A stretch of DNA of 62,274 nt, the filler included. It is 11 parts of 11 records of this genome, joined end to end, with 100 filler letters (N's around TTAATTAATTAA, not from the genome) between each part and the next. Parts side by side here need not be neighbours in the genome. Positions count along the whole stretch, not along the records: positions 28,278 to 36,817 come from SRR7504441_2455; 10 more parts are not named here. One strand, written 5' to 3'. The notes under the pieces were generated by a model, which did no database searches, had not been told where the DNA came from, and was given only the letters and a program-made list of their open reading frames with translations. A program made the translations under genes and the position numbers. The stretch's first letter is position 1. Every line of letters starts with the position of its first letter. This document shows positions 9,570 through 54,977 of the stretch, piece by piece.

Positions 9570-9669
9570 NNNNNNNNNNNNNNNNNNNNNNNNNNNNNNN
9601 NNNNNNNNNNNNNTTAATTAATTAANNNNNNNNNNNNNNNNNNNNNNNNNNNNNNNNNNNNNNNNNNNN
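9570..9669. other. Artificial contig linker
   Basis: N44-TTAATTAATTAA-N44. Confidence 0.99.
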
Positions 9670-12569: not shown

Positions 12570-14340
12570 CTACGCATACAAATGCGCCTGGCGGCCAATC
12601 GTCCTGCGCGTCGCCTCAAGAAGTGCAGGGTCGTCGTCGTGGTCAGTAGCATTCCGCACCAGCCGCTCCACGGCCGCCGCCCGGATCTTAGCCGGGACCA
12701 TCCGGAGCATCTCGAGATCCTCAAGCGCGTCCCGGATCTGCTCGAGCCTCGAGCTTGAGATCGGCCCATCGGGCCCCGGATACATGTAGTAACCTGCCAC
12801 CCGTGAGCACCAGTCCGGACGGGGCCGGGTAACCGTCGCCATTCACCCAGAAGTCGTAGAGCTTGTCGCTGCACCAGATGATCGAGGCCGGGTCGAAGTC
12901 GGTCAGGAAGCTCCCGTTGATCCGACGCATCACGCTCCTCGGCCGGCGCTGCCACTCATGCGGCGACTCCGGGCAGTTCTTCCAGAGATTGGTGGCCCAG
13001 TAAAGCCAGCCCTGCACGTTCTGCGTAGCAGCCAACCAAAAGAGCAGCCGAGCTTGTATCAGAGGCCTCTCTATGAATATGTTCAGATAGTCAGCCCCGC
13101 TAGGCTCAATGCAGTGGTAGAGGTACATCTTTCGGTCGCGCCCCATCACGGTTGAATTCACCCACGCGTCGGCGGTAGTATGGTTGTAGTACTGATACTG
13201 AAGCACCCAGCCAGTCAGTGGCATGTCCAGCGGCATTCCTCCATCGCTCGGGTGGCTCCCGGTGGACCCGTTGTTGCCCTTGGAGCCGGCCCAGTTGAGC
13301 GCGGCCATTGTGCCGCCCAGCTCGGGGTACTCGGCCACGGGGTACTGTTCCAGGAAAGCTCCGAACGCCTTCCGAATCGACTTTTCACAGGATCGCGGCC
13401 GCTCATCGAACCCATAACCAAACAGACTCGCGCCCGACACGTTCCGTGCCGCACGCACCGTGGCGGCCATGCCTGCAGCCGCGCTTTGGGCCGCCGAATC
13501 GGTGCAGCTGGAGCAGTTGCAGCCCTCCAGGTGGATGCCGGCTTCAAGCATGCCAGTCTTGCCACTGAGGAAGGAGCCCGAGCTGCCGGGCGCCCAGGCG
13601 GCGCTGTCGATGGGGGGCAGTCGGTGCTCCTCCATGAAGGTCCACCACTGGAGCGCGAGCCGGTCCATCGGGAGATCGGGGTAGTACGGCGCCAGCAGGG
13701 CAGACGAGAAGTGCCAGTCGTGCTGCACAGAGGCCTCGGCTGTAGTGGGCACTGTCACCGGCCAGACCTCCAGGACTACCGGCAGGCTGGCCGCCACCGC
13801 CCCATCCACGCTCACGTTCAGCACCCCTCGGTACTCTTGCCCCTCGGGCGCTGGCGCCGCGCCGCGTGGCACTTGGACAGTGAGCCAGATCGGCTGGCTC
13901 CAGCCGGGCTGGGTCGGGAGCGTGATGCTGCCGTCGGGCATCGGGTCGAGCAGCGGGTCCGGCCGCCAGCACGAGCCATCCTGGTTGGCCCCGGGGCATC
14001 CGGAGTCGGCATAGCGGCTGGTGTGTCTGGTGAACACGAAGCCTTGCTGCCGCCAGCGCAAAAGCCGGCTGGGAATCACCGCGCCGCTGGGGGCGACCAG
14101 GTCCCCGAACTGCAGCGCGAGCTTGCGTCCGAGGCCCGAGCTGGACGGCCGGACCAGGATCTGAGCTGATTCGAACTCGCCCCGCTGCGCGGCCCAACTG
14201 ACGCCTCGGGCGGGGGCTGGCTGGTCGGCGCAGCTGTGCGAGAAGTTGAGGTGCCGCGTGGCCGGCAGCACGCAGAGCTCCTGCAATGGAGAGCCCGACA
14301 CCGCGCCCAGCATCAGCAGCACGCCTGTTGAGAGCCTCAT
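12570..14340 (-). CDS. Secreted DUF4091 / GH123-like glycoside hydrolase
   Basis: Signal peptide MRLSTGVLLMLGAVSG; AQRGEFESAQI, WRPDPLL, QPIWLTVQVP, YGFDER, QARLLFW, GWLYWATNLW. A 40-nt intron restores NGDGYYMYPG-SSRLEQIRDALEDLE, the DUF4091 C-terminal signature. Confidence 0.82.
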
Positions 14341-14356
14341 CGATGCTTTTGATGAG

Positions 14357-14668
14357 ATGGCCTCTCTTCGTTCCGATTTTTTCGCGGAATCCGCGCGGCG
14401 GGATCGCCTGATGGGGTGCGACTTCTCCCGGGTCTGCGAGTCGCCGGAGGTCGAGTCCGTGCGGGTGACGTCGACAGACGCGACCGAGTGCGCACTGACC
14501 AGTCCACAGCCGGCCAGTGCGCACTCGGTCGCTACCTCGGCCGAACCCGCTGCTTCCGCTAGCACGGTTACGCCTCCTTCCAAGGCTCCCGCTGCCGAGG
14601 CTCCTGTGAAGGCAGCTGCGCCAAAGGCGTCCGTCGCGGCACCTGCTGCTCACACGCCGGCACCTGCC
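14357..14668 (+). CDS. Possible 5' fragment of an A/P/S/T-rich protein, cut by contig end
   Basis: Open frame from ATG 14357 to the linker; low complexity; divergent from the DUF4091 gene. Confidence 0.35.
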
Positions 14669-14768
14669 NNNNNNNNNNNNNNNNNNNNNNNNNNNNNNNN
14701 NNNNNNNNNNNNTTAATTAATTAANNNNNNNNNNNNNNNNNNNNNNNNNNNNNNNNNNNNNNNNNNNN
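14669..14768. other. Artificial contig linker
   Basis: N44-TTAATTAATTAA-N44. Confidence 0.99.
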
Positions 14769-21076: not shown

Positions 21077-21176
21077 NNNNNNNNNNNNNNNNNNNNNNNN
21101 NNNNNNNNNNNNNNNNNNNNTTAATTAATTAANNNNNNNNNNNNNNNNNNNNNNNNNNNNNNNNNNNNNNNNNNNN
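21077..21176. other. Artificial contig linker
   Basis: N44-TTAATTAATTAA-N44. Confidence 0.99.
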
Positions 21177-21377
21177 TGGGGCGTTCGTCTTAGATTTTAG
21201 GTCCGGTAGTCACGTACGAACGACTCCGAAATGTCCGAATTATTGCATAGTTACATGTATGATTGTAAGCTGCCATCTAACCCTCTTGCCAATTGGCCTC
21301 CCGTAGACTCCACCTGGGGGAGCTGAACACCGCGCACAGGAGGAGAGCGTGCAGTTCCGTTACGATTGGCCAGCGGC

Positions 21378-22886
21378 ATGCGTTTGTTAGCTGGGTTGCT
21401 GGTTTTGGCGACTGCGTCGGCGCAAGCCTGCGTGCCGTGGCCTGCGCCACCCAATGGGACGGCCTGCTGCCCAGGCACCGACCGGCCGCCACCGGCTGGC
21501 TGCAAATACCCTTGTGGGGCTGAGGGTTGCAAGTGCGTCAACGCCAGTGTAGGCTGGTGTGGGCACACCTCGAGCGGTGGCCGGTGCGCCTGCGCCCAGA
21601 CCGGCTGCACGGGGGACGGGGACTGCTGCGGGGCCGGGGAGGGGGCGGTCTGCTCGGCCGGCACCTGCTACTGTACCGACTTCCAGTCTTGTGCCCCCGA
21701 CAAATACCGCTGCCCCCGGCCGCTGGCAAATCGGTTTGGCTCGTCAGCCGGGCTCAAGCTGGAGCGACCGGGGCAGATGGGCCAGGGCTACGACATGGCC
21801 GGCTTCCAGGGCATCGGCTACCGGCTGGCGCTCGGGCAGACCGCCGGGCGATGGATCGGAAGCCACGACGGCGGCCGGAGCTGGCAGGCTGTGCTGCCCA
21901 GTGGTGGGGTGAGCGGGGGTGTGGCCGCCTCGGTGCTGAGCTCGCCCGATTCGCGTCACGATCTGGGGGCCATCACACAGGTGCCAGACAAGCGGCGGCC
22001 GTACAGGCAGTTCAACTCGAGCTCTTGCAGCTGGTTCAACCTCACCACCGACGGTCTAGTCCAGGCGGGCACCGAGCGCCGTCCGGTCGTGTTCGGGGGG
22101 ATCCCGCCCCCGGGCTTTTCGTGCGGCACCCCGCGGGCGCAGTTCGGATGCCCGTTCAGGACCGGCGGTCGAGGCTACGTTGAGATGCCGGACGGGACTC
22201 TAGTGATGTCGGTGATTGTGTGGTGGGGCGGCCCGCACGCCAACCCGAACCCGAAGCTGGCCGGAGTCTCAACCTCGGTGGTCGCCTTCCGCTCGGCCGA
22301 CAAGGGCTTCACCTGGCTGTACTCGGGGGTGGTGCTCGATGCCTCGGCCGCCCCTCATTCGGAGGAGGGCCCCAACGAGAACGACTTGGTGCTTCTGGCG
22401 GACGGCAGCACGATCATGGCCGTGATCAGGCTCGACGCCGGCGACGGGCCGCTCACTCGGCCGTACCTGCCGTACGTGCGGGTGCTCTCGTCGGATGGCG
22501 GCAGGAGTTGGTCCCGAGCAAGCAGCCTGCCGCCCAAAGTGGGCTCGGCGCGGCCGCGGCTGATGAGGACGGACGACGGGCAAATCGTGCTGTCAGGCGG
22601 CCGGAGTGGGCCCAAGAATCGAGACACGATGGTCTGGCTCAACAGCGGGCGCGACGGAGGCGCCGGCTGGCGGGCTTATTCAGTGACTTACTGGCACAAT
22701 ACGCTCGAGCCGAACAGCACTCTTCACTTTACGGCGGCGGTGAACGACTCGTCGTTCCGGCAGACCATGAGTTACACCAGTCTGGTCAAGACAGGCCCCC
22801 AGACCGGCTTGGTCACATACGCCCGAAGATTGGCCGGAACCCCCGATGTCGCCTTCTCGATGCCTTTCACGGTCGAGGCGATCTAG
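21378..22886 (+). CDS. Secreted BNR/Asp-box (sialidase-like) beta-propeller with Cys-rich N-terminal domain
   Basis: Signal peptide MRLLAGLLVLATASA; about 20 Cys in the first 100 aa; Asp-boxes SHDGGRSW, SADKGFTW, SSDGGRSW; GPNENDL, SARPRL, MSYTSL. Intronless. Confidence 0.8.
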   Translation: MRLLAGLLVLATASAQACVPWPAPPNGTACCPGTDRPPPAGCKYPCGAEGCKCVNASVGWCGHTSSGGRCACAQTGCTGDGDCCGAGEGAVCSAGTCYCTDFQSCAPDKYRCPRPLANRFGSSAGLKLERPGQMGQGYDMAGFQGIGYRLALGQTAGRWIGSHDGGRSWQAVLPSGGVSGGVAASVLSSPDSRHDLGAITQVPDKRRPYRQFNSSSCSWFNLTTDGLVQAGTERRPVVFGGIPPPGFSCGTPRAQFGCPFRTGGRGYVEMPDGTLVMSVIVWWGGPHANPNPKLAGVSTSVVAFRSADKGFTWLYSGVVLDASAAPHSEEGPNENDLVLLADGSTIMAVIRLDAGDGPLTRPYLPYVRVLSSDGGRSWSRASSLPPKVGSARPRLMRTDDGQIVLSGGRSGPKNRDTMVWLNSGRDGGAGWRAYSVTYWHNTLEPNSTLHFTAAVNDSSFRQTMSYTSLVKTGPQTGLVTYARRLAGTPDVAFSMPFTVEAI

Positions 22887-28177: not shown

Positions 28178-28277
28178 NNNNNNNNNNNNNNNNNNNNNNN
28201 NNNNNNNNNNNNNNNNNNNNNTTAATTAATTAANNNNNNNNNNNNNNNNNNNNNNNNNNNNNNNNNNNNNNNNNNNN
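28178..28277. other. Artificial contig linker
   Basis: N44-TTAATTAATTAA-N44. Confidence 0.99.
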
Positions 28278-30505
28278 CTCTCGAACGTTGCTCAAGGCTG
28301 TGCTGCAGGAGGCTGATCAAGAAACAGACGACAGTACCAGCTCGTCTGCTCAAAGCGTTAACTCTTGTGCAGAATCACGTGTGGATAGCATGGCGTTGAT
28401 GAACCGAGTATCAGCAACACTAGCTGGGACTTCGCCATCATTTGGGATTCCAGCCGAGCAATCGCCACTACTCTCAATTCCTGAGTCAGAAACAACTCCT
28501 GCAGCCGCTTCCAAGCCAAACACTGGAGCACAACTCCGGCCACTGCTGATCAGCACACCGCTGCCAACACCCAGTCGGCAGCCACTCAGGACTGTATTGG
28601 TGGAGTCTCAGCTGCAATACATCAGCCCTGATGCAGTGCAAGGCGTGAAGCGTGGCTGCCATCCTCATTCCAATCTCTCGCAGATCGAAGTCTCGCTGTA
28701 TGGTGAGCCAATCTCTGGACTGCTCTCCAGCAATGCAATGGCCATCCCAGAAGTGCCTTCGCTTGAGATGCTAGGGGAGCTGCTTACGAGCCCTCCCCCA
28801 AGTGACGCTCGACCGCGCAAGCTGCCCCGAATCTCACTAACTAGCATTGTGCGCGAGGCTGAGCCTGCACCACAAGAAGAAGCTTTGCCTGAGCCGGGAA
28901 CACCCGTCGAGCAGGCAACAAACAATGACATTAAGCTAAAGCGGGTCTCACTATCGACAATAGTCGCTTCCCTGGCTGATGCCAGCCCCGAGTCGGAATG
29001 CGATGCCAGCCAAGCTCGAGAAGCCGACAAGGAGGCGGCGGCGGCGCTTGTTCAGGCAGCAGCAAGCGCGTGCATTGAGGAGAGTCCAGCGCCAATTCCT
29101 GCTGAGCCACTGCTTGTGGCTCATGAAGTGCCAGCGGATGCACGGATCTCGTTCAACGACTTCATGGTGGCTACTGAACCGCAGCTGGACATGGAAGGAT
29201 TCGCAGCCACCCTGGCCCAAGCCTATGTGCCTGCTCCATTGATTGGAAGCCTGCAATTGGCCGAGATGTTGGATGCGCGCTTCATGGAAGAGACCCAACT
29301 GCCAAAGCTACAGTGGGCTATCGAATCGCTGGTCCACAAAATTATCGAATCCAAGCAGAAGTTGGTCAGTGTTGAGACTGGCCTTGAAACTGAGCGACCA
29401 CCGCTGTTTGGGCTGACTGCTTCGCCCTGCTGCCACAGCGCTATAGCAGCTCTTTCTCTGGAGGCTCGCAACAGTGCTGGTGAGGCTATGTGTGTTTGGT
29501 GGCTAAAACACGAAGCTGCGCTCACAGAGGCACGCGGAGCGCTTGTCAATCGTCTTGAAAAGGATACACAGACAGTCAAAAAGTGCACGAGCAAGCTTGA
29601 AAGAAGCCTGGCGGCAGTGACCAAGGAGCTTGATGGCGCTGATCGCTATACAGAGGCGCTGCAAAACGAGCTCTCAGATAGAGTCCAGGTGATGCAAGCC
29701 AGAGTATTGGAATACGCTGCCAAGTCGGAAGCCAAAGCATCAGAGTGTCTGACTGCAAAGGAGACAGACGAGGAATTGCAGCAGCAGATTGAGAGCTACA
29801 CCCTCCAGTCTGAGCAAGTGGAGGCCAAAACAGAGAAACTGCTGGGCCAAGGCGTCGACATGGATCAGGCACGGCAGCTAGTGGATGTCTTGCACCAACT
29901 GGCCAACTGGGAGGCCAAAGTTGCGGAGGACAAGCAGTCCCTCGAGCTGAAGTGGAACCACAACGGAGCTATTTGCACGGTGATCGAAATCAAGCTAGAT
30001 GGAACGTCAGTCAGCAGCCTGAAGGTGCGCTGTTTCTGGCCTGCAATGATGTGAGTGTGTGCTGTGTCAGGTTGAGCATCCAGCTGTGGAAGAAAGTACG
30101 CTCCCACTCCGGTTGATGCAAACGGTCCCGTGTGAAGAGATTCTGAGTAGTGTCACCCAAATCAGCGAACTCCCACCGGCGCTTGCACACATCTCAGCCC
30201 TGATGGGGCGAGCGACAGAGCTGGAACGTGAGCTGAGCAGGCTGCGATGCCAACATGGGGTCGACGTGAATGTCGATAAGATGCAAGCCACTGTGTGGCA
30301 GTTTGATTGTAAACAGGGCTCGTTTGGACTCTGCTTCTCATTTCAGTATAGCTATCCATATGGCCAATTAGAGTGCACTCCGGTCACACTGGTTGGATGT
30401 GTGGATGATGACATGATTCAGAAACATGTCAATCAGAACCGAGGGTTCAACCGGATCACCAATATCTGCACCTGTGTACGCGAGTACTGCATGTGCAACG
30501 CATAG
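28278..30505 (+). CDS. KNL1/Spc105/Spc7-like kinetochore protein, C-terminal part (5'-truncated)
   Basis: Disordered S/P/E region, then an Spc7-like block (ISFNDFM...IESLVHKIIESK...E...RPPLF...ARNSA...WW...L...D), a coiled coil, and an RWD-like end (FSFQYSYPYGQL). One intron at about 30024-30070 joins ORFs 28288-30054 and 30059-30505. Confidence 0.62.
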
Positions 30506-30757
30506 TCTCGCTACCAAGCCTGCCTGTAGCTATGGTAGCAAGTCTCTCACAGTCATGCATTATCAATGTGAGAGGTCTTATTCACAGTCATCACGACATT
30601 GTTCACAACTAGAAACAATTATACCTACACAAATCATCACAGACGATTTCAATCATGATTGAATGTTGCATAGATCAGAATGTTCAAATCAATTGAAATA
30701 AACTGATTACTTACTCGTATACAATGTCAATGCACAATGATTGTAGTTATTATATCG

Positions 30758-30790
30758 AGTTATGTCGAGCTTTAAGTTATGTCGAGCTTT
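30758..30790. repeat. Short tandem duplication (AGTTATGTCGAGCTTT x2)
   Basis: Two exact 16-nt copies separated by one A, in the convergent intergenic spacer. Confidence 0.8.
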
Positions 30791-30953
30791 ATGATTGAGC
30801 TAGGGTTAACTACGAGTCTAGCTGGACCGTTGACTCCGGGGATCTAGAGGGCCTTCGAGCTGCCTTTGTGATCTTCTTTTCGACACTCAGGAAATCTCGA
30901 TTCAGGCCTGCAACCACACAGGCATTCAATCTTGTGCGGAATGCCTGTCATAA

Positions 30954-33900
30954 TTATGCAACCCGGGCGCACGCACCGAGGAAGAGCTGGGTTGCTGGGT
31001 TGGTCGAGTGGTTGGCTACTAATGAGGTCAGAAAGTAGTTCAGGCTCTCGGTCCGCTGTTGCAGTGCTGCCTGACTGACCACAACCTTCTTGGGCGGCAG
31101 CTCTGGCAGCCTCTTATCCACCCCAGTCTTGCCCAGCTCCTCGAGCAGGGCCACGAAGTGCGAATACCTCCTTAGCAGTACCCATTCCTCGCGGTTCATG
31201 TTCGGATAGTGCACTGTGACTGTGATTTCAAAAACAGTAGAAGTGGCCCGGCGCGAGGTGCAGAACAGCGACGAGATTAGACCTCGGGCAGGTTCAATCG
31301 GGATCTTCTGGATCACACTCGTGACTGCGAGCGGCCGGAGCTCAGGACTTTGCTCCAGGCAGCTCCCAGTGGTCTGGAACATTTTGCGACACAGCGCCTT
31401 GTAGTGGTCTCCGTAAATCATCGTATAATGGTTGCCACCCACCTCGATAACCCGCAGTGAGTTGCACACGTCAGACCACTTGCAGTCGTCTTCCATTGAG
31501 AGCTGCCACGGCTTGTCCTCGATCGGCCGGAGCAGCGTGATGTGCCCCGGGAAGAAACTGGGCTGATATGCTGCCTCCAACTTGTTGTGATGCGCCAGCA
31601 ACTCAAACATCCGCCCGGTCTTTGGGACTAGCATGAGCTGCCCCTGGTTCTGTTGCTGGGCCTGATTCAGCTGCCGGTCCATCAGCGAGCCAGAGCCTGA
31701 GCTCTCAAACCAGGACGATCCGCACGCCCGGCTGCTGTTTTGGTGAGTGCTCTTATGCTGCATCACAAAGCACGCGTTTCGGAACTGCTCCGCGTTCTGA
31801 GGGTGAAAGACATTGGCCCAGAAACACATCCGCTGGCCCATTCGCTGGGTGCCTGGGTCTGGGAACGCTGGGTCCAGCATCCAAAGTGAGGCCACCTGCC
31901 AGCAGGATCAGGCTCAACTGGGATGGAGCATGCCTGCGTGCCCTGCGCATGCAGCTGCTGAGCCATCTCGAAAGCAACTACAGCGCCGTACGACCAGCCA
32001 CAGAGGTGGTAAGGCCCTTCAGGCTGGATTGTGGTCATGTCGTGTAGCCAGCTGGCAGCCATTGCTTGCAAGGAGGCACCTAAAGGTCTTGAAGCCACAA
32101 GCGCCGGGTCTTGAAAGCAGTAGACTGCAAACCTTTGCCCAAGACCCTCTGCAATATAAAACTGCGGAAACGCCAGCCCACCAGCCGCTGGGCATATAAA
32201 AATGTTCTCTGAGCCGCCATCCTTGTGTGGCGGCTGCATCACTAGCACAGATTTGAATTCATCCGCTTTTTCTTTGCCTGACACCCAGTCAGCCGGTACA
32301 GGGCCGGCAGGCGCACCTTGTATCACATTGCTTACGTGTCGGATCGTCGGATGCTGGAAGACATCTGCCACTGACAGCGACACGCCAAACCGCTTCTCGA
32401 CCGCGCCGATCATTAGCATCGCAGTTATTGAGGTCCCCCCGAGTTGGAAGAAATTGCCAGTCACCTGTGCCAACCCTGATGAGTGATGCCGACCCGGGGC
32501 ATGCCGAAATGTTTGGCAGCCTGAGAATGTCTTGCCATATTGCCAGGATAGTGCCCTCACACTCGCCCTGCTTGGAACCTCAGCGGCAATAGCCGCGCCG
32601 GTCGCACCTCCGGAGGGACCATCCACGCCTTAGTTTGGCCGGCCGGCTGGGCCTCGGCCTCTAGGCACATTTGCTTGAGCTTCATCCGGTCAATCTGCCA
32701 CAGATCAGCTGCCAGCCAAGCCACGAGAAGGCACCTTCCCGTTAGGAGTCAGCGGCAGGGCCGCAAGAGCCTTTATCGACCCAGGCACCATGTATTGAGG
32801 CAGCGCCCCGGCCACAGAGGCCTTTAGCCGCGCCAGCCGACCCAACTGGGCTGTAGAGGATGGCTCAAGCTCCGGCTGGTGCAGCTCAGCAAACACCACA
32901 AAGCTGACCAGCAACCCGTCGCCATTCCGGTCCTGGCAGAGTATCACTGCTGCCTGGGCCACCCCAGGCTGCTCCAAAACTGCCTTCTCCACTTGTGAAA
33001 GCTCCACCCGATGCCCGTTCACCTTCACCTGACTGTCACACCGCCCCGCGAAATACAGCTGGCCATCCTCGCCGCGCCAGCCCAGGTCGCCAGTCCGGAA
33101 CGCCCGCCCGTGCCCGGGCAGCTCCAAGAACCGCTCAGCGGTCAGCTCCGGGGCGTTGTGGTAGCCCTGCGCTAGCTGGGCCCCAGTGCAATACAGCTCG
33201 CCTGTCTGCCCATCCGGCACTTGCTCCAGCTGCTCCCCTAACAGCAGCACGCCACACTCCGGCAGCGCCAGCCCTATCGGCATCAGCTCGTGCGCTGCCA
33301 GCTCGGCCGGCGGCCCCGCGTCCCCCAGACTCCGCTGAAGCACTGCGTACGTGATGTCGCCTGCAACTTCAGTCGATCCGTACAAGTTGATCAGCTGGCC
33401 AGGGTCGACCGCCTGCGCAAACTCGTGGACCAGCACGTTCGGCAGGGCCTCCCCCGAGCAGCTCCAGCTGGTGAGCCTCGGCAGCCGTTCGCCGAGGTCC
33501 GGGAAGCTTTGGAGCAGCGTGCGGAGCAGCGATGGCACTAGCACGATCCGAGCTACGTGTTGCTGAGCCAGCGCCATGAGCAGCTGCTGCGGCGACTGGA
33601 TCAAATCGTCCGGGAGCACCACCAACGGACATCCAGCCAGCAGCGGGCCAAACACCTCCCAGACCGAGTCTACAAAGTTCAGGCTGGTCTTGTGGCACAT
33701 CACACTCCGCCCAGGCACGAGCGGGAATTGCTTGTACATCCATTTGATCCGATTCAGCGCCCCGCGGTGGGTCCCACGCACGCCCTTGGGCCTACCGGTG
33801 GACCCCGAGGTGTACAGCACATATAGCAGCTGCCGTTATACCAGTGAGCGGCCACGCCTGCCTACGGGACGGCACCTCTGAAGGCTGGCCAGGGTCAGTT

Positions 33901-34479
33901 GGCACTCTATCGGCCGGCAGCGCGTTGTAGCACTCCATCAGCTCGGGCTCGCCCAGCTCGATCTTGGGGACGGCCACCCTCGGGTCTCCTATCAGCCAGC
34001 TGGCCTGCGGGTTTTGGTGCTGTGTGAGGATGCACGCCAGCCCGGCATTCTCGATTATATGAAGCAAGTAGGACTGCGGATACCGCGGGTCCAGCGCCAC
34101 GTACGCCGCCTGCGCCTTGATCACCGCGAGCATCGCCGCCACCGAGAACAGCCCCCTGCCCTCCGGCTGGCGCGGCCCGCGACGCCGGCACCTTGGTACA
34201 CAAATCCCGACCAGGGCGCCGGGCCCGACGCCGTTTAGCATGAGCAGCCGCTGGAGCTGGTTCACCCTAGCCTCCAGCTGGTCAAAGTCCACCTGCCCGC
34301 CCTGATCCCCTTCCCTCTGACTGGCCCACCGGGTCGGCTTGCTCGTCCGGGTGCGGGATGATCAGGGCGGCCAGGGCCGGGTTCTGGTCGGCCCGGGCCT
34401 CGAAGGCCTGGTGGACCGTCTGGAACTCGAACCGGTCGGCCGACGTGTCCTTCCGCAGCCGCCCATCCTCCAACCACAT
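30954..34479 (-). CDS. Monomodular NRPS-like enzyme: adenylation (Ebony-like) - thiolation - thioesterase - PX domain
   Basis: A-domain motifs YTSGSTGRPKG, FVDSVWE, SGEAL, NLYGSTE, GELY, FRTGDL, GRCDSQVKVNGHRVEL, LPQYMVP, NGK|ID. T domain NFFQLGGTS. TE GWSYG and GGNHYTM. PX domain EEWVLLRRYSHFVALLEEL...LPELPPKK...QRTESLNYFL. Seven short introns, two of them GC-AG (31896-31933, 32465-32504). Confidence 0.88.
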
Positions 34480-34689
34480 CGCGGCTGGCTCACCCGCCCT
34501 AGGTACTGGTTGGGATCCACAGCACTGAGTGCATGCACACTGCACTGGTGCGGGTGAGACTGTTGCTTCACCGATCTCTTCAACGGCCGCGGCCTGTGAC
34601 CCAAAACGGCACCGAAGCGTGTTGGCGGGAGCTGCTGCGGAGGGGTTCGGCGCAGCCCGCGAGCCGGGGGGTGCTTGGCTCCCGGAGAG

Positions 34690-36817
34690 ATGGTGTTCTA
34701 CACGCTTTCAGTCGAGTCCCCCGAGCACATCGCGGTCCGGCCAGCCAGCCGCGGCTTGCCAGCCCGGGGGCCAGGGCGACTATCAAGTGAAGCAGGCAGC
34801 CTTCGGGCCAGGCTGGCCCGAAGGGGTGCTCAGTAAGCTCCAGAACACCGGCACCGGGCGCTGACCGGCCGGCTCGGCAGCCTGTCCTGTCTTTGACTGC
34901 GGTGAAGACGAGCAACTCCGGAAGGTGGTGAGGCGGCAGGTTTATAAACATATTGCTTTGGTGGTGCCAGCTGCCCGCCCGGGCTGTGGCTGAACCGATC
35001 GCAGAAACGGTCGAAAGATCAGCCGGACTACATGCTTGTCAGGCATTTGGAAGGAAAGTTGGCGACTGCAGTAATCATGACGATGCGCGACCAGCGTGAG
35101 TGCGAAACTCTGGTCCTACCAAAGGTCTCTTTCGCCATGTCATTGCAACTGTTGTTTGGGGAGACCGGAGTATAGTGACAGTGTTGTTTGGTCAGGGAGC
35201 GCTGCAGGACGAATGCAACATTCCGGCATTCTGTATTGGCAAAGCAGACGGGCAAGCACTTTCGAGGGCAGCAGAGCAGGGCCCTGTTGTCCTCTCCCTT
35301 GTTGCTGCTGTGGTGGACATCTACAGCTTTGGGTTGGGGTGCAAGGGACAGATTGGGCTTTCAAATGGTGATCTCAATTGATTAGCAGACATTTTACCAG
35401 ATTTGTGTGGTGTTAGACTTGTCGTTTGTCACCTGCTGGAAGCCCACTTTGTGCTGCAAGGAGAAGAGCGTGTCGTCGCTGATTTGTGGTGAACAACACA
35501 CAGTGATCCAACCGCGTTGCTGCCTTGTATTAACAGGCTGCCAGGTGGTGCTACTAGACTCTGGCTGTGTTTTTGCATTTGGTGATAATGAAGTCGGACA
35601 GCTAGGATGTGGTGCGGTCCCTGCACGATAGAAAACTCTTATGGATGCTGGTGGGTTGGTAGGAGATTATCAGAGCCGCTCAAAACCAGAACGGGTACAC
35701 CTGGATGGTCTCAAGGTCACAGCGATTGGCGGAGGTAGCTTCCACACACTGGCAATCACCGGGGCTGAGGGCCTATGGTCTTGGGGTTGCAATGATTACG
35801 GACAGCTGGGGCACTCCAACAGGGATAAGCAGACCACACCACAGATGGTCGATGGGTTTGAAAGGCGGAAGGTGATTTCAGTGGATGGTGGTTACATGCA
35901 CACAATATGCCTAGTGCAAAATTGGTCGCGAACCGAGGCACAGGCTGCAGAGGAGGCTCGGCTGAAGAAGGAAGCTGAGAAATCTTCTAGGTTGAAGAAG
36001 AAGGGTGTGGGTAAGGTCAATAAATTTCGCGTGACGGTCAGCCCTGCACAGATTGAAAAGGACTTAACTGGATTGGTTTTGTAGGCTCTTTTGGAAAAAG
36101 CTGGATTAGCTGAGGTAGATGAGGGCAAACAAGAAAGACGGGATAAGAAACGAACGCTTAAGGACATCTTCGCGAAGAAAGAAGCACGGAAAAAGCTGGA
36201 ATCTGACCCAGAAGCTGAACGCAGGACAGTCTACACATTTGGTGATGGTGGACGTGGGCAGATGGGGCATGGGGACCTCTACACTGTTGCTTACTTTGCC
36301 GCCCATAACCCGAAGGACAATGCAGCGATTCAAGCTCGACAGAGGCACTTCACCGCAAACGGGGCGGCTCGAAAGATCGAAGAACTTCTAAAGTATCAGG
36401 AGGGCAAGCTGGTACCCCATTCGGAAAAGTTGACGCCTCATTCATTGGGCCGTTAGGTTAAAGTGCTGGCACGAGGGTCTCAGTCTGCAATCTTAACCAG
36501 CACCCACAGCATCTTCATGTTTGGTGCAAATGAATTTGGCCAACTAGGATTAGGAGATCGCAAGGACAGAAATACACCCTGCTTACTCGACAAGGTGACC
36601 AAAACGGTGTGTTCGTAGCCATGTTGATGCTGCTTGTTGTCAGAAATTCAACAAGGACGAGAGACTAGTGGATCTTTCCCTTGGACAGTCACACACACTC
36701 TTTCTCACCTCAGAAGGAAACGTGTTTGGTTGTGGACGGGGAATGGAGGGACAACTTGGACAGGGAGATGGCTCAAACTGACTAGATGGAGGGCAAGAGC
36801 CTTCTCCTCCGAGCTCT
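34690..36817 (+). CDS. PA-domain-like N-terminus + RCC1 repeats, multi-exon, 3'-truncated
   Basis: Spliced N-terminus MVFYTLSVESPEHIAGDYQVKQAAFGP...HIALVKR...ATAVIM...NIPAFCIGKADGQAL, then RCC1 repeats (IYSFGLGCKGQIG, FAFGDNEVGQLG, WSWGCNDYGQLG, YTFGDGGRGQMG, MFGANEFGQLG). Confidence 0.72.
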
Positions 36818-36917
36818 NNNNNNNNNNNNNNNNNNNNNNNNNNNNNNNNNNNNNNNNNNNNTTAATTAATTAANNNNNNNNNNNNNNNNNNNNNNNNNNN
36901 NNNNNNNNNNNNNNNNN
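36818..36917. other. Artificial contig linker
   Basis: N44-TTAATTAATTAA-N44. Confidence 0.99.
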
Positions 36918-40434: not shown

Positions 40435-40534
40435 NNNNNNNNNNNNNNNNNNNNNNNNNNNNNNNNNNNNNNNNNNNNTTAATTAATTAANNNNNNNNNN
40501 NNNNNNNNNNNNNNNNNNNNNNNNNNNNNNNNNN
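40435..40534. other. Artificial contig linker
   Basis: N44-TTAATTAATTAA-N44. Confidence 0.99.
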
Positions 40535-46768: not shown

Positions 46769-46868
46769 NNNNNNNNNNNNNNNNNNNNNNNNNNNNNNNN
46801 NNNNNNNNNNNNTTAATTAATTAANNNNNNNNNNNNNNNNNNNNNNNNNNNNNNNNNNNNNNNNNNNN
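46769..46868. other. Artificial contig linker
   Basis: N44-TTAATTAATTAA-N44. Confidence 0.99.
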
Positions 46869-48883: not shown

Positions 48884-48956
48884 TCTTCCCCACTGATCCC
48901 AACGGCCACTGCCGGCCGGAGGGGGCTGATCGACATCCACGGCCACTGCCGGAGCA

Positions 48957-51900
48957 ATGGTCGGAGCACTGGCCGGAGCGATATGCCTGGCCCTGCGCTG
49001 TGCACTGGCCCTGGGCGCCCGATCGGAACTGTTCGACTCGTTGTCCTCGCTCCAGTTCCGGAACCCGCCAGACGGCGCAGTCAGCCGAGCCGCCGACCAG
49101 GTGACTCACCGGGAGCAGTGCGTGCTCTACAGTGAGATCGACAATGTGAGCTCCATCAACAAGGGCTGGGACGTGGGCAGCGGCGTGGGCTGGAACCTGA
49201 GTTACCCCTACGCCGCCAATGGAACCGTCCCGCCCACAGGCATCCGCTCGGCAGTGCCGCTGGGCGGGATGGCGACGGGTAACTTTGAGGTGCGCGCTGA
49301 CGGCAGCTTCAGGCAATGGTGCATCGAGAGTCAGTCGCCGGGCGGTGGGGCCAAACTCGATATTGGGGCGCTGAATGAGGCCACGCTCGGTGTGCGGGTC
49401 AACAGCAAGGCCGCGCTGCTGCGCACGCATCCGCCTGCCGGCCTTCCTGGAGTGGCCGGGCTGCGCTACGAGGGGGCCGTTCCCGTTTCCAAGCTGACTG
49501 TAGAGGATAGCGATCTGCCTGCGGCGCTCGCCCTGTATGCGCACGGCGAGATTGTACCTTGGGAGCACGACCAAAGTCTCACGCCTGCCGTCAGCTTCAC
49601 GCTGACAGCCCACAATCCGACTCGTACGCCCATAGAGGTCGCGCTGCTGCTCTCTCTGCCACTCGCGAGCCAGCCCGAAACGGCCCGAGTGGTGGCGGAA
49701 GGATCCGAGCGTACGCGTGCGAATGCCTCCACTGTGCTGGCGTGCAAAGCTCTGTGCGACAGCTCAGTCAGCTGTGTCGGGTGGAGCTTGGAGGCCGCCG
49801 AGTGCTACCTGATCCGAGGCGGGGTGCCGCAGAACGTGTTTGCAGCTGGCGTCACCTCCGGAATCAAAGGTTCGTGGACGCACACCGCCGACACACTGGT
49901 CCACGACCGAGCCATTCCAGCTCCGCCAATTCCTCCACCTCCAGTCGCGTGCTCCAATTCCACGACTGTGCAGGGCTATGACATAGCCGGCACATTGGTC
50001 AAGCAGCCGTCTCCTGTGGGCGGAGCTGCAGTTGATGCATTGCCTGTGGCGGAGGGCCAGGCAGGCTACAACAGCTGTCGGCGCACATGCTGCAGCAACC
50101 CTCTCTGCAAAGCGTGGGTTGTCGCCTCTCCCTCTGCACCGCCGGGCGCTGCACCAGCCCCGTGCTCTCACGGAAAGCCGTGCTGCTGGCACAAAGGCGG
50201 CAAGGCATCGATTTCGTCCAAGTGTTCGTACTGCACCTCTTCTGTGTGGGACTCTTCTGGCTCTGACTCTACATCCGGCCTCAACGAACAAGTGGGGAAC
50301 TTTGCACTCCATGTGCCCAACACCAACCCAGACTCGAAAGTCTCGTTTATGACTGCCGACACTCTGCCGGGCATCTTCGAGCGCTTTAGCCAGGGGGGGT
50401 CCTCGAGTGTCAGCTCAGCTGCAGTTCACGGTGCAGTCTCGTCGAGCCTTGTGCTGCAGCCTGGTGAGAACAGAACGATCACTATTGTTTTTGGCTGGCA
50501 CTTTAGCACCCGGTACTTTACAGGGGCGTCGATTGGCAACTACTATACTCGTTTGCACAAGGATGCGGCCAGCGCCGCGCAGGGGATGGGGCAAAGGCTC
50601 GAACAGTTGGTGGAGACTTACCGTGGCTGGCACGCCGCCTTCTTTGAGGCTAGCTCTCTTCCTGCGTGGTTGCAAGACGTGCTCGTCAACTCGATGAGCC
50701 AGTGGAGATCGGCTTTCAAGACAGCAGATGGAAGATGGCGTCAGTGGGAGGCTTACGACTGTGTTGACGTGGACAGCGTTCACAACGATTACCAGAGGCA
50801 GATGCCTTATGCCCTATTCTTTCCAGAGTTCGTGAAAAACACGATGAGCACAGGCTGGAAGAAGCTACAGCAGTCAAATGGTATGATCACAGAGAGTCTC
50901 AGTGGCGGATGCATGGGACCGACTGGCACTCTCGATTCCGGCGGCGGCCGTGTGATGGGAGATGTGTCGACAATTTTTTTGATCGAAGTTCTGCAACTGT
51001 ATGAGTGGACAAACGATCCAGCTTTCCTTGATGAAATGGCCAGCGCCGCACTCAGAGCAGGGGAGTGGTTCATGAATATTGGGACTGCTGGAACACCGCT
51101 GCCGCATAAGCAATGCTGCACCTATGATATCATTGACTTTGCAAACTATGACCATACAGCATACAATTCGTTCCTCTATCTGGCTGCTCTGAGGGCGGGC
51201 GAACGTCTCGGTGCACACCTCAATAACCGCACCTTCAGCCTGGAGTGTGAGAGGAAGATAGCAACTGCGACCAAATTTATGGTTCAGGCGCTTTGGAACC
51301 AAACCCACCAGTATTTCCGGGCATGGCAAGACGCAGCCCTCGGTGCGCCGCCGTGGGTGATGGCAGATACTCTCTACGGACAAGTCCTGGCAAATACGCT
51401 CGGGCTCGAGTCCAATGCAACAACGTGGCTGGTGGATCCGAAGATGATCGAATCGCATCTGCATGTAGAAGCCACTTTTAATCCTTCGCCGTATGGTCTG
51501 ACCGTGGTGACAACCTCTGGTCAGCCTCCAATGCCACGACGACAGCTTGATGGGAAGCAAGCAACCTGCAGCGAAGCTACCAAATTGGCCAAGTATGACT
51601 CGGTCTGGATGGGAGGGGCGCCGGATTGGGCTGCCCTCCAAATTGCACTTGGAGAGCAAGGGGTTGGCTTGGCAGCTGCACTGGCGATGGCAGAAAAGGA
51701 GTTGGACCATTGGAGAACCGATCTTCGTGATCAGTGGAACATTCATGGCCTGACAGCTAATGACGGGTATGGAGTAGATGGGCAGCCATGGTGTACTGCT
51801 CATTATGGCTTCCACATGCCAATCTGGCACATTCCATTCGCTATGTCTGGGCAGCGGTTTTCTGCCCTGGCGAATGGAACCATCTCATTCGCACCCAAGC

Positions 51901-52103
51901 TAACGTGCCCATTCAAGCTGCCCTTCCTCACGCCCGGTGGTGTGGGTACGATTGGCTGCGGAAAGGATGCGTATGAGCTGACAGTGACTCTAGGCAAGCT
52001 GCGGGTGGAGAGGCTTTCTGTGCGAAGGGACGGTCGTGATGTCTTCTTTCCGACGAGTGCCGACGTTGCCACAGGCGAGAGCATTAGTTGGCCAATCGCG
52101 TAA
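48957..52103 (+). CDS. Secreted GH116 (GBA2-like) glycosidase with inserted PAN/apple-like modules
   Basis: Signal peptide; AVPLGGMATGNFEVRADGSFRQW (GH116 N domain); RQWEAYDC, CTYD, YNSFLYLAAL, LWNQ..YF, ADTLYGQ, AHYG. Cys modules CKALCDSSVSCVGWS...CYL and CRRTCCSNPLCKAWV...CWHK. Intronless. Confidence 0.85.
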   Translation: MVGALAGAICLALRCALALGARSELFDSLSSLQFRNPPDGAVSRAADQVTHREQCVLYSEIDNVSSINKGWDVGSGVGWNLSYPYAANGTVPPTGIRSAVPLGGMATGNFEVRADGSFRQWCIESQSPGGGAKLDIGALNEATLGVRVNSKAALLRTHPPAGLPGVAGLRYEGAVPVSKLTVEDSDLPAALALYAHGEIVPWEHDQSLTPAVSFTLTAHNPTRTPIEVALLLSLPLASQPETARVVAEGSERTRANASTVLACKALCDSSVSCVGWSLEAAECYLIRGGVPQNVFAAGVTSGIKGSWTHTADTLVHDRAIPAPPIPPPPVACSNSTTVQGYDIAGTLVKQPSPVGGAAVDALPVAEGQAGYNSCRRTCCSNPLCKAWVVASPSAPPGAAPAPCSHGKPCCWHKGGKASISSKCSYCTSSVWDSSGSDSTSGLNEQVGNFALHVPNTNPDSKVSFMTADTLPGIFERFSQGGSSSVSSAAVHGAVSSSLVLQPGENRTITIVFGWHFSTRYFTGASIGNYYTRLHKDAASAAQGMGQRLEQLVETYRGWHAAFFEASSLPAWLQDVLVNSMSQWRSAFKTADGRWRQWEAYDCVDVDSVHNDYQRQMPYALFFPEFVKNTMSTGWKKLQQSNGMITESLSGGCMGPTGTLDSGGGRVMGDVSTIFLIEVLQLYEWTNDPAFLDEMASAALRAGEWFMNIGTAGTPLPHKQCCTYDIIDFANYDHTAYNSFLYLAALRAGERLGAHLNNRTFSLECERKIATATKFMVQALWNQTHQYFRAWQDAALGAPPWVMADTLYGQVLANTLGLESNATTWLVDPKMIESHLHVEATFNPSPYGLTVVTTSGQPPMPRRQLDGKQATCSEATKLAKYDSVWMGGAPDWAALQIALGEQGVGLAAALAMAEKELDHWRTDLRDQWNIHGLTANDGYGVDGQPWCTAHYGFHMPIWHIPFAMSGQRFSALANGTISFAPKLTCPFKLPFLTPGGVGTIGCGKDAYELTVTLGKLRVERLSVRRDGRDVFFPTSADVATGESISWPIA

Positions 52104-52505: not shown

Positions 52506-52605
52506 NNNNNNNNNNNNNNNNNNNNNNNNNNNNNNNNNNNNNNNNNNNNTTAATTAATTAANNNNNNNNNNNNNNNNNNNNNNNNNNNNNNNNNNNNNNN
52601 NNNNN
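52506..52605. other. Artificial contig linker
   Basis: N44-TTAATTAATTAA-N44. Confidence 0.99.
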
Positions 52606-53125: not shown

Positions 53126-54918
53126 CTAATTCCCGATGCCCATCTCTGCCAAGAGCTTTTGCAACCGTTTGCAAATCACTGTCTCTCGCGCCTCTGCTGG
53201 GAACGAATTGACACAACCTAGCAAATGTTTCTTCGCTGCCTTCTCTTGGCTGGTGAGCAGCTGCTCATATTTCTTGTCCAAGATAAAACTAGAGCTCGAC
53301 AAGCCGTCGCTGGCAGCCAGAAAACCCATGTAATCAAGGAAGATGGCCTGCATCCGGGCCGCGGATGCAAAGTCGAATGTAGAGCCGTCCTCTGGAGGAG
53401 GGAGCATCCCAATCAGTTGCATCCGGTCCTGCCAGAGCTCCTTCATCATCATGTTCTCGTCCAGCATCAGGGCCGTTGCATGATCCCTCGTCCGGTCGCC
53501 CATGGTCTGGTGCACCTGGGACGCGTAATCAGCACAGCCACCGGCACAAAACCACCGCGTGGACGATCTTGTGGAAGTTGGCATCACTCAGAGAAAAGCC
53601 AAGAAACAGCACATGCTTGGTGATTAACATTGCCTGTCTCCAATCAACATAGCGCGGCTGCCGGCTAGACCTGCACAATCCCAGCCATGGCCTCACACTT
53701 ATTGTGATAGTCCATATAATCCTCGCGCGTGATCACGATGCTGAGCGGATCCGTGACACACCCATGCATCTTCAACAGCCACTTGTTGCAGCCCTCCACT
53801 GGCGAACAAGGCAGCACTGAGATGCTCTGCCGGTCATCCCCGGCGCCTGACATCACGGCCTGTTCAAAGAGCTGGTCGTAGTTTGTCGTGATTGCGTTGA
53901 GCTTTTTACCAAACATGGAAGCGAGCAGCGCATGCTTCAGAGAGAAGAATTTCGCCTGCGAGAGCATCTGTGAGATTTCATAGTTGAACGCCTCGTGCGA
54001 GTCCGTGTTGTGCTGCAGCCTATTCTTGAGCACAGTGGCCTGATCTAGCACGTCAAGCCTCTTGAGAGCCGCTCGCTCGTGCCCAGTGAGCTCGGCCTTA
54101 GTGGCCATAGCATCGAGCAACATCCTCCAGCTCGGCAGCCCACAGCCCATCGATATCCCAGCTCCTATGAATAGCACCAGCTGCTCTCTCACCAGCCAGC
54201 CCACCAGCCCCCGGGCCTGCTCCCTCAGCTCCGCTCCAAGCTCAGACCAGCTCCCCTCCGACCGTGCAAGCTGCACTGCCGAGTACAGCACATCGTCAGA
54301 GCCTGTCATAATCGCAATATCGTGCCCCGACCGGACGGCCCACGACTCCAGCAGCGGGAGCATGGCCGCCATCGCCCCGCCTATGTCTGTGGTCCGTGTG
54401 GCGCCGGCCACTACCATCCCGAGAAGGTGCCGGCTCCGGCCGAACAACGGCTCGCGGCGGCCAAAGTCCTCTTCTACCACCGTCAGCAGTTCATCGAGCA
54501 GCTCGGGCGGTGGATAGTCGTCCCCTATATTCACCAGATATGGCTGCGGCAGCTCGACCTCCTTGCCATGCCCCGCCGGCGGCCAGGGCTGAACCCGAAG
54601 CACCTTTGACCGACCGCTGCCAAAGCTCTCGGGCAGCTCACAGGCCAGGCTGAGCGGTCCGAGCCTCCGAGCCCCGGGCAGCTTATCATCCAGCTCCCAG
54701 CCGGGCTTGAGCCGCAGAGTCGAGTCCGGATTGATCCCGCAGGTGGCAATGTGTGCGTCGCAGGCCAGCTCGGCCACCGAGCCCTTGGCGATGAACAGCC
54801 GGCCCGGGGAGCGATCGTGGAGCGGGCCCGGCTCGGACAGGTCGCAGGACCTTCGGCCCCAGCCGTCGTGCATCCGGGCTAGGTCCTCTCCGAGCCCATC
54901 AAGCAGAGTGCGGCGCAT
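53126..54918 (-). CDS. Bacterial-type SIR2_2 (NADase-like sirtuin) protein with N-terminal macrodomain-like region (3 exons)
   Basis: LFIGAGISMGCGLPSW, ITTNYDQLFE, WLLKMHG, IVITREDY. Introns 53634-53670 and 53516-53555 restore AGIVQAMLITKHVLFLGFSLSDANFHKIVHAV. N-terminal LFIAKGSVAELACDA resembles the start of a macrodomain. Confidence 0.85.
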
Positions 54919-54977
54919 CGCTTAGGGGCGGGAAGCCGGTGAAGCTAGCCGTTACTCCGCCACGGGCAACTGGAAGG

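Follow-up and report, generated by a model that had tools for sequence, protein, structure and literature searches.

Does this locus encode an adenylation (A), a carrier (T), a thioesterase (TE), and a phosphoinositide-binding PX domain on one polypeptide, as the original prediction proposed, and if so, what might such an enzyme do? The window analyzed, 62,274 nucleotides in length, consists of 11 unrelated contigs whose joints read N44-TTAATTAATTAA-N44, and only positions 28278–36817 form the true context of the gene. On a different contig lies a GH116 gene whose metagenome and EukProt relatives are 56–66% identical and whose best named match is 35% identical (limpet). An Rfam scan of the contig that carries the NRPS-type gene gave 0 matches. 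We conclude that this gene is genuine, intact, and conserved, and that it comes from an uncultured marine protist.

The gene model spans 30810..34479 on the minus strand, where all features described below also lie, and comprises nine exons and eight introns that yield a predicted protein of 1107 aa. It begins at the earliest ATG in the open frame (34479) and proceeds through exons 34479–34330, 34292–34192, 34155–33876, 33829–32735, 32694–32608, 32567–32505, 32464–31934, and 31895–30977 to a ninth and last exon (30907–30810), which begins LNRDFLSVEKKITKAARRPS and ends with the stop codon at 30810–30812. The introns are short (36–69 nt, n = 8), and the lengths of six of the eight are not divisible by 3, so their removal is obligatory for maintaining the reading frame. 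Exon junctions of the spliced model are gap-free relative to bacterial A-domain homologs and fit P0001, a related transcript from EukProt. Because P0001 is 5′-truncated, additional exons upstream of 34479 may exist; they could encode, for instance, a condensation (C) domain or a targeting peptide.

The 3′ end of the gene had originally been misplaced. The stop at 30954–30956 is intronic, lying within a 69-nt GT..AG intron (30976–30908) that is placed after LFLG and splits the last PX helix. A tblastn alignment with P0001 runs through the intron read-through into the last exon, where GLNRDFLSVEKK... pairs with the P0001 C terminus, GLNRQFLDVERV, and the gene reaches 30810. The claim that the TE-PX fusion holds without reliance on intron calls is borne out: the ORF at 30954..31907 (317 aa) carries the TE Asp, the TE His, and the PX motifs, and the link between the two domains is independent of splicing predictions because the TE His and the PX domain share this single frame. 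Pfam finds all four domains on the minus strand, and in the gene model they sit on one polypeptide.

Pfam was run on the raw, unspliced ORFs of the gene, and four of the five gave matches. The A domain (aa 21–548, 32677..34419) matches AMP-binding (PF00501) at 2.9e-13 and 2.3e-41 and AMP-binding_C (PF13193) at 6.9e-09, and it aligns with NRPS A domains in the PDB with E values down to 1.4e-82. The best NCBIfam model for the largest exon alone is TIGR01733, amino acid adenylation domain (2.6e-75), with a score below the cut-off set for the full-length model, since the query comprised just 365 aa. Its core motifs are intact, with YTSGSTGRPKG at 33814–33782, FVDSVWE at 33676–33656, NLYGSTE at 33388–33368, FRTGD at 33100–33086, and NGKIDR at 32743–32686, and A3, A5, A7, A8, and A10 are present together with the catalytic Lys; the last Lys of the query lies opposite residue 517 of 1amu. 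Four introns fall within or at the end of this domain (34329–34293, 37 nt; 34191–34156, 36 nt; 33875–33830, 46 nt; 32734–32695, 40 nt). Homology to bacterial A domains starts at approximately residue 10–21, and Pfam found no Condensation domain in the five gene ORFs or in a 152-aa upstream ORF. Judged by its domain content, the module is of the stand-alone NRPS termination type (A-T-TE, with no C domain seen).

The ten-residue specificity code of the A domain is VDWLSSLGDK, in which the substrate-binding Asp occupies code position 236, not 235; Val sits opposite Asp235 of the PDB A domains in HMMER alignments. An Asp236-for-Asp235 pattern is associated with beta-alanine and other beta-amino acids, and VDWLSSLGDK is a candidate beta-alanine signature in view of its V-D beginning, its Asp at 236, and its S-L-x-D-K ending. 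The serine code is similar save that the first two positions are swapped. All 22 of the most similar sequences among 233 bacterial A-domain alignments (41.5–39.0% identity) likewise carry x-D at 235–236, and their codes are mostly VDWLVSLADK or VDWLVSLGDK. One review identifies Asp235 as the contact for the alpha-amino group (PMC11355689). Because the Asp is shifted in every one of the 22 nearest A domains, we argue that the amino-group contact is conserved in a different register. These features would fit one small amino-acid-like substrate, perhaps of the beta-amino class.

The alternative to be taken most seriously is that the A domain accepts an ordinary alpha-amino acid such as serine, or a non-amino acid, rather than a beta-amino acid. 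We regard this as a real possibility, though not the probable one. The assignment of this code to beta-alanine is tentative, and a full-text search of main articles found no source for a beta-alanine code like VDWLSSLGDK. In addition, codes of the DVWF.SL.DK type occur in the same bacterial proteins (68 of the 233 alignments begin DV), and loss of Asp235 is also reported for domains that activate hydroxy or carboxy acids (PMC11356792). However, the Asp in the 22 nearest relatives is moved by one residue and not lost, and the best NCBIfam model is one for amino acid adenylation.

The domains that follow are equally intact. The carrier domain (T/PCP, aa 572–640, 32321..32567) matches Pfam PP-binding (PF00550, 1.2e-12) and places the phosphopantetheine Ser604 within LGGTS (32431–32429). 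It contains a 40-nt GC..AG intron (32504–32465), whose splice junction, RLPNIS|VTGNFF, agrees with P0001 RLGQISVTGNFF. The type-I TE (aa 664–945, 31368..32251), interrupted by a 38-nt GC..AG intron (31933–31896), matches Pfam Thioesterase (PF00975) in its N-terminal half (2.8e-15). It retains Ser750 in GWSYG (31993–31991), Asp777 in WMLDP (31874–31872), and His925 in GGNH (31430–31428). The TE core has pLDDT values of 88–97 in a model of the ortholog P0001, not of the window protein, and the lid is long, of low complexity, and poorly predicted. In P0001 the TE shows the alpha/beta-hydrolase fold, and the T-TE region matches the termination modules AB3403, EntF, and SrfA-C as well as the T-TE di-domain of EntF and the TEs of FAS and Pks13. 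NCBIfam gave no match for the TE-PX ORF.

Between TE and PX lies a linker of ~40 aa (aa 946–983, 31254..31367) that shares its exon with the TE His motif and with PX. It can be aligned among the relatives P0001, P0002, and P0005, and its pLDDT is low in both models (residues 190–209 of the PX-containing model and 485–508 of the P0001 model); TE and PX of P0001 are modeled as separate folded units with disordered linker between them. A distinct downstream PX gene was considered and ruled out, since no stop codon interrupts the frame from the TE His to PX and the relatives show the same co-linear order.

The C-terminal domain (aa 984–1085, 30879..31253) is identified as PX by Pfam, AF2, Foldseek, and phmmer. 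The original assignment passes both an HMM check (PF00787, E 7.4e-10, 39.7 bits compared to a cut-off of 21.6) and a fold check: of the 33 Foldseek matches to the PDB at E≤1e-3, all those listed are PX domains, with E values of ~1e-4 and TM (target) values of 0.41–0.69 against single-domain PX entries. The AF2 model (pLDDT 78–91 across the domain) has PX topology, with three strands (213–220, 225–233, 239–247), helix 1 (248–260), the PELPPKK loop, and helices 2 and 3 (279–300, 304–309). PX domains of the PI3P-binding class are recognized by an Arg and a Tyr within R(R/K)(Y/F)S.F, a Lys after PxxP, and an Arg in helix 2. All four residues of this Arg-Tyr/Lys/Arg set are present here, in RRYSHF (31172–31155), PELPPKK (31106–31086), and Arg1050 (31055–31053), which makes PI3P a predicted ligand. 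The domain would probably place small-molecule chemistry on endosome-like membranes. The originally suggested links to food vacuoles, prey killing, or detoxification gain no support from these results and are conjecture.

It is unlikely, in our judgment, that the PX domain instead has a different lipid or a protein partner as its ligand, or serves in regulation or dimerization, leaving the enzyme cytosolic. Some PX domains do have other phosphoinositides, lipids, or proteins as ligands, and the phmmer matches (SGK3-PX, Nischarin, Mvp1, and SNX16) have modest E values, the best being 9e-05. Moreover, the distant relative P0005 has at this position a diverged C-terminal domain with no Pfam PX match and without the Arg-Tyr, PxxPxK, and helix-Arg motifs, so lipid binding is perhaps dispensable in the family. 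However, RRYSHF, LPELPPKK, and the helix Arg are retained in the window protein, P0001, and P0002, and these residues align with those of the PI3P-binding proteins SGK3, Mvp1, and SNX16.

A search for the same domain order elsewhere recovered the TE-linker-PX arrangement in two relatives. P0001 is 52% identical over query residues 4–312 in one unbroken alignment and has Pfam matches to PP-binding, Thioesterase, and PX (34.5 bits). The P0002 cluster, with four members from metagenome assemblies, is 67% identical, covers the region from the TE His to PX, and matches Pfam PX at 9.9e-10 (39.3 bits). Columns invariant among the three proteins include R246, R247, and Y248, K273 and K274, and R285. 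Only three representatives of 1.84 billion proteins were found at E≤1e-10, and because P0001 and P0002 alone span both TE and PX, the family is rare. Scans with the TE-PX alignment produced pattern matches that tblastn did not confirm in contigs from metagenomes (0 of 143), viruses (0 of 71), or prokaryote genomes (0 of 38), and the ESM Atlas held no TE-PX cluster, only weak (0.77) bacterial thioesterase-like clusters. The suggestion that the architecture had not been described also agrees with our findings: no report of an A-T-TE-PX protein was found in the full-text literature, and to the extent of that search the domain order is new to print.

Such rarity, together with the lack of visible partner genes on the 8.5-kb contig, could suggest that a bacterial NRPS module was acquired horizontally and is now a decaying, non-functional remnant. 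We consider this very improbable. Every catalytic motif of A, T, and TE is intact, and the eight introns are spliced in frame in the gene model. The TE-PX region is 52–67% identical across lineages with its catalytic and lipid-binding residues invariant, and the relative P0001 is transcribed.

Near-identical contigs of the gene, 151–394 nt in length, occur in four runs from four studies. One DNA contig of 394 nt covers 31011–31404, and its run may be the source sample; another, from run X2, covers 30816–31011 with 0 differences. RNA matches comprise two 151-nt contigs from one oligo-dT metatranscriptome, both within exon 8 and ending at the PX edge. RNA libraries can contain DNA. No splice joints were seen in the short read contigs (151–394 nt on the gene), and stretches that these contigs leave uncovered count neither for nor against the model. 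A candidate joint from 32666 to 34363 (side of 21 nt, run X1) was rejected: its ends are AC..AT and not intron-like, and the 2277-nt contig is mostly unlike the window, so it presumably derives from another organism or a repeat. A chimeric assembly or wrong gene model that fused an NRPS gene with an adjoining PX gene might be imagined from the short metagenome-type contigs that make up the window, from a GC content that goes from 0.70 at the 5′ end of the gene to 0.55 at its 3′ end, and from the failure of any listed read piece to span the whole stretch, but we give this almost no credence, because the TE His and PX lie within one 317-codon ORF, the GC shift is gradual and without a break, near-identical pieces occur in runs from four studies, and the identical TE-linker-PX order in a transcript from another species (P0001) and in four metagenome proteins (the P0002 cluster) shows that the fusion is no assembly artifact.

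The explanation we favor overall, and hold with more confidence than doubt, is that this genuine protist protein, built of A-T-TE, a linker, and PX, is an aminoacyl loading and transfer enzyme docked on PI3P membranes. The A domain would adenylate one small amino-acid-like substrate, using Asp236 in place of Asp235, and a thioester of this substrate would form on the phosphopantetheine of Ser604. The acyl group would then be moved to Ser750 of the TE and released by transfer to a nucleophile, for which candidates are an amine, a lipid or metabolite hydroxyl, a further aminoacyl unit, or water. If PX anchors the enzyme on a PI3P-rich endosomal, phagosomal, or vacuolar membrane, then the product would be formed at or on that same membrane.

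Comparison with known systems clarifies which parts of this protein are familiar. EntF, AB3403, and SrfA-C (PDB 5ja1, 4zxh, and 2vsq) have the same A-T-TE order and core motifs, a carrier Ser, and a Ser-Asp-His TE; the P0001 T-TE region finds its best fold matches among them, and the window A domain matches them in sequence. These proteins carry an N-terminal condensation domain and belong to multi-module lines; the window protein shows no C domain, has an added PX domain, and is encoded by an intron-bearing eukaryotic gene. Among the best 120 long homologs, every named match is a bacterial NRPS. The closest A domains (38–41% identity) belong to bacterial modules with Val/Ala-Asp at 235–236 followed by T-TE (P0089, P0032, and P0087, from Ktedonobacteraceae and metagenomes). 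They share with the window A domain the string KTSLNFVDSVWE.FGPLL and near-identical codes, and the T-TE regions following VD-type A domains are co-linear with that of the window protein at 25–33% identity. However, these bacterial proteins are without PX and are mostly two-module C-A-T-C-A-T-TE enzymes.

Fungal NRPS-like A-T-TE enzymes of the TdiA and atromentin synthetase type, which are quinone/furanone synthetases, are also stand-alone, lack a C domain, and have Val235, but they activate aryl alpha-keto acids and are not known to carry Asp236 or PX. Compared to that general description, the window protein has Asp236, and its nearest relatives are bacterial A domains of the amino-acid type. 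Drosophila Ebony is a beta-alanyl-amine synthase whose single A-T module activates beta-alanine and, though it has no classical C domain, hands it on to an amine; its C terminus is an amine-selecting domain, and it is not known to carry a TE or PX. Ebony is a possible functional analog of the window protein. For the PX domain, SGK3 kinase, PI3K-C2, and KIF16B (PDB 1xte/6edx, 2ar5, and 2v14) offer the same fold and motif set, and the docking of an enzyme on phosphoinositide membranes by PX follows the same logic as proposed here. In those cases the partner of PX is a kinase or a motor; no PX on an NRPS-type module was found in our full-text literature searches.

We speculate further that capture of a bacterial beta-alanine-type module, with introns and a PI3P-binding PX domain, created a new class of organelle-anchored aminoacyl-transferase, whose TE would transfer a beta-aminoacyl group onto a membrane lipid or a luminal or vesicular amine at the endosome or phagosome. 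This more specific proposal is doubtful at present; if true, aminoacylation driven by ATP and independent of tRNA would take place at one defined membrane of a eukaryotic cell.

NRPS-type enzymes are usually viewed as soluble assembly lines. Where eukaryotes compartmentalize such enzymes, the signal can be indirect: in Aspergillus fumigatus, secondary metabolism by melanin enzymes is placed on endosomes via palmitoylation (PMC5120144), an endosomal placement like that proposed here but achieved without PX by unrelated enzymes in an unrelated organism. The window protein has a predicted membrane address inside the polypeptide itself, kept in at least three diverged lineages, and with this label both the site and the target of a single-module synthetase become directly testable. 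The gene would represent a clear case in which a bacterial-type secondary-metabolism module was domesticated by an uncultured marine protist, gaining introns and becoming fused with a domain specific to eukaryotes. Should the enzyme indeed use a beta-amino acid, it would also point to a new beta-alanyl (or related) conjugate at the endomembranes of marine plankton.

The defining feature of the minus-strand gene studied here, which encodes an NRPS-type module of adenylation (A), carrier (T), and thioesterase (TE) domains, is a C-terminal PX domain, and this TE-PX fusion is genuine and conserved. As the original prediction held, the second half of the TE and the PX domain lie in a single uninterrupted ORF (stop to stop, about 30954-31907). 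Its 317 amino acids hold the TE Asp (WMLDP), the TE His (GGNH), and PX, and therefore the link between the two domains is independent of splice calls. Pfam, applied to minus-strand stop-to-stop ORFs, matched all four anticipated domains in order: the N-terminal part of AMP-binding (33795-34361; E = 2.9e-13), the AMP-binding core with AMP-binding_C (32708-33835; E = 2.3e-41 and 6.9e-09), PP-binding with the first half of Thioesterase (31766-32629; E = 1.2e-12 and 2.8e-15), and PX (30957-31907; E = 7.4e-10, 39.7 bits versus a cut-off of 21.6).

The assignment of the C-terminal region as PX is upheld by its fold as well as by this above-cut-off match. AlphaFold2, run on the TE-PX ORF with a 23-row alignment, yields at residues ~211-312 (pLDDT 78-91) the topology strand-strand-strand-helix-loop-helix-helix. 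Foldseek returned 33 PDB matches at E<=1e-3, and all matches listed are PX domains, including those of SNX25, SGK3/CISK, SNX16, SNX7, SNX24, PI3K-C2alpha, p40phox, and SNX3, with about 105-111 aligned columns and TM scores (target) up to 0.69. When phmmer was used against PDB sequences, RRYSHF, PELPPKK, and the helix-2 Arg aligned to their equivalents in SGK3-PX, Nischarin, Mvp1, and SNX16. A four-residue set within the PX motifs marks PI3P binders.

A search for longer homologues in a set of 5.8 billion proteins gave one match among 1,370 candidates. This protein, P0001, is a 628-aa ORF from a EukProt Trinity transcript with 51% identity over 97% of the TE-PX ORF. Pfam detects PP-binding, Thioesterase, and PX in P0001, and AMP-binding_C at 24.3 bits, slightly below the cut-off of 24.5. 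Its first residues resemble sequencing adapter in translation, so P0001 is taken to be truncated at the 5′ end. When 1.84 billion representative proteins were searched exhaustively with HMMER, 20 matched at E<=1e-3, of which three reached E<=1e-10 and two E<=1e-30. Just two of the matched proteins span the region from the TE His motif through PX: P0001 (52% identity, query 4-312) and P0002, a cluster of four metagenome-assembly proteins (67% identity, query 126-313; Pfam PX 9.9e-10). The TE-linker-PX order is thus found elsewhere, and the RRYSHF, PELPPKK, and helix-2 Arg residues are invariant across the window protein, P0001, and P0002. Apart from P0005, the other matched proteins align through the C-terminal half of the TE alone or PX alone. 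The distant relative P0005 (a JGI metagenome protein of 455 aa) carries a full TE, and the linker that follows is co-linear with ours. Where PX would be expected, its C-terminal domain has diverged: this domain gives no Pfam PX match and lacks the RRY, PxxPxK, and helix-Arg motifs, and may represent a PX that has lost lipid binding. No related loci turned up when contigs from viruses, prokaryote genomes, and JGI metagenomes were scanned.

Near-identical short contigs of the gene occur in four runs from four studies, and the runs with pieces of the gene carry marine or aquatic metagenome labels. A 394-nt DNA contig covers the linker and PX (31011-31404), and its run is possibly the source sample. 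Two 151-nt contigs from an oligo-dT marine metatranscriptome (31279-31429 and 31628-31778) both fall within exon 8, and no splice joints were seen in the read-derived contigs of the four runs. Evidence for transcription in the source organism is only partial.

Our homologue-guided model runs from an ATG at 34479 to a stop at 30810-30812, with nine exons encoding 1107 aa. The eight introns (30908-34329) are unusually small: seven are of 36-46 nt (37, 36, 46, 40, 40, 40, and 38 nt) and one is of 69 nt. Only their removal preserves the frame, since six of the eight lengths cannot be divided by three. Their 5′ ends are GTG in six cases (GTGC in five) and GCATGC, of the GC-AG type, in the other two; all eight end in AG, seven of them in CAG. 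Such tiny introns with GTG or GCATGC starts, seen here in one gene, may be a lineage signature. Where exons join behind residues 50, 83/84, and 177, the spliced protein aligns gap-free with bacterial A domains. It also fits transcript-derived P0001 at three places: the T-domain junction (RLPNIS|VTGNFF), the TE junction (AQGTQ|VASLWMLDP), and the C-terminus. The original 3′ end at 30954 was wrong: this stop lies within the 69-nt intron (30976-30908), and coding resumes in a last exon (30907-30810) that encodes GLNRDFLSVEKK, matching GLNRQFLDVERV of P0001.

The core motifs of the catalytic module are intact. A-domain homology starts near residue 10-21 of the spliced protein, and the core motifs YTSGSTGRPKG, NLYGSTE, FRTGD, GRCDSQVKVNGHRVEL, and NGKIDR are all present, as are the T motif LGGTS and the TE motifs GWSYG, WMLDP, and GGNH. 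Pfam found no condensation domain in the ORFs of the gene or in the 152-aa upstream ORF. The TE fold is indicated indirectly, by a model of the orthologue P0001 (mean pLDDT 75.9), in which confidence is high for the T domain and the core of the TE. The TE lid is disordered, as are residues 485-508, which link the TE to an independent PX. The best PDB fold matches of this model comprise NRPS termination modules (AB3403, EntF, ObiF1, and SrfA-C), the T-TE di-domain of EntF, and the thioesterases of FAS, NocB, Pks13, and Vlm2.

According to a review, Asp235 of A domains holds the alpha-amino group and the C-terminal Lys the carboxylate group of the substrate (PMC11355689), and a second paper describes Asp235 substitutions as a mark of hydroxy/carboxy-acid activation (PMC11356792). 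HMMER alignment with solved A domains places a Val of the window protein opposite Asp235 and an Asp one residue on (FVDSVWE versus FDVSVWE and FDISVAE). The ten specificity positions, in GrsA numbering, were placed by motif landmarks, with the terminal Lys aligning with residue 517 of 1amu as a check, and read VDWLSSLGDK. Among 6,670 long homologues (E<=1e-3, 8,000 candidates scored), the best 120 are bacterial NRPSs wherever named. They supplied 233 A-domain alignments, of which 69 have codes starting VD. The closest 22 (41.5-39.0% identity) all have x-Asp at positions 235-236, with codes including VDWLVSLADK, VDWLVSLGDK, and ADWLSSLADK. The string KTSLNFVDSVWE.FGPLL is common to the window protein and these bacterial A domains, several of which precede a T-TE aligning with that of the window protein at 25-33%. 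The published signature of beta-alanine modules probably opens with Val-Asp and closes with S-L-x-D-K; a search of full-text articles found no source for a beta-alanine code. Because of the Asp at 236, the VDWLSSLGDK pattern, and this probable signature, we tentatively give beta-alanine or another beta/omega-amino acid slightly less than an even chance of being the substrate.

Ten identical 100-nt linkers (N44-TTAATTAATTAA-N44; 3678-3777, 9570-9669, 14669-14768, 21077-21176, 28178-28277, 36818-36917, 40435-40534, 46769-46868, 52506-52605, and 59122-59221) divide the 62,274-base window into 11 contigs of 3.0-8.5 kb (GC 0.566-0.65), and thus gene neighbourhood across linkers carries no meaning. 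The true genomic context of the gene is contig 28278-36817 only (8,540 bp, GC 0.566), in which an Rfam scan gave no match. Across 30810-34877, GC declines gradually from ~0.70 at the 5′ end of the gene to ~0.55 at its 3′ end with no break. The same contig carries a coiled-coil ORF (28279-30051, plus strand; its Spc7 match is weak and under cut-off) and, adjoining the gene, an RCC1-repeat gene (~35386-36817, plus strand) that is interrupted by short introns with in-frame stops and truncated by the contig end. A second RCC1-repeat gene lies on a different contig (1-1668, plus strand). The convergent intergenic spacer 3′ of the gene is AT-rich (GC 0.35 at 30528-30827); in this spacer, common to two convergent genes, a 17-nt unit, AGTTATGTCGAGCTTTA, is duplicated exactly in tandem right after the stop codon (30758-30791).

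Other contigs carry a GH116 (GBA2-like glucosylceramidase) gene as a single 1057-aa ORF (48930-52100, plus strand), S9 peptidase and Upf1-like helicase genes, and long ORFs with GH123 (12724-14649, minus strand), BNR-repeat (sialidase-like; 21327-22883, plus strand), and SIR2_2 (53668-54921, minus strand) domains. This glycan-degrading gene set fits a heterotroph. Relatives of the GH116 ORF at 56-66% identity come only from metagenomes and a EukProt transcriptome, and a PAN/Apple-type domain (PF14295) is present in relatives. The best named match, from a limpet, is merely 35% identical, which indicates that the lineage is poorly sampled.

These sequence features fit an origin in which a protist lineage would have acquired a bacterial A-T-TE termination cassette, followed by gain of introns and fusion to PX. 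A bacterial source is suggested by the closest relatives of both the A domain and the T-TE, which come from bacteria, and a protist recipient by the eukaryote-type PX together with eight introns of spliceosomal type. In the most likely mode of action, the A domain would adenylate the substrate and load it onto the carrier phosphopantetheine Ser604, and the acyl group would then pass to the TE catalytic Ser750 and on to a nucleophile, while PX would hold the enzyme at a PI3P membrane. Without a condensation domain, the TE would be the sole bond-forming or releasing catalyst, and the product would thus be a simple conjugate, an oligomer, or a free acid. Given the putative membrane anchor, an acceptor that is membrane-resident or compartment-specific is an attractive possibility. 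The original prediction knew of no A-T-TE-PX architecture, and our full-text literature search likewise found no description of PX joined to an NRPS or to adenylation plus thioesterase domains. The domains and their catalytic logic are known; what appears to be new is the conserved fusion to a putative targeting domain, in a lineage that has been little sampled.
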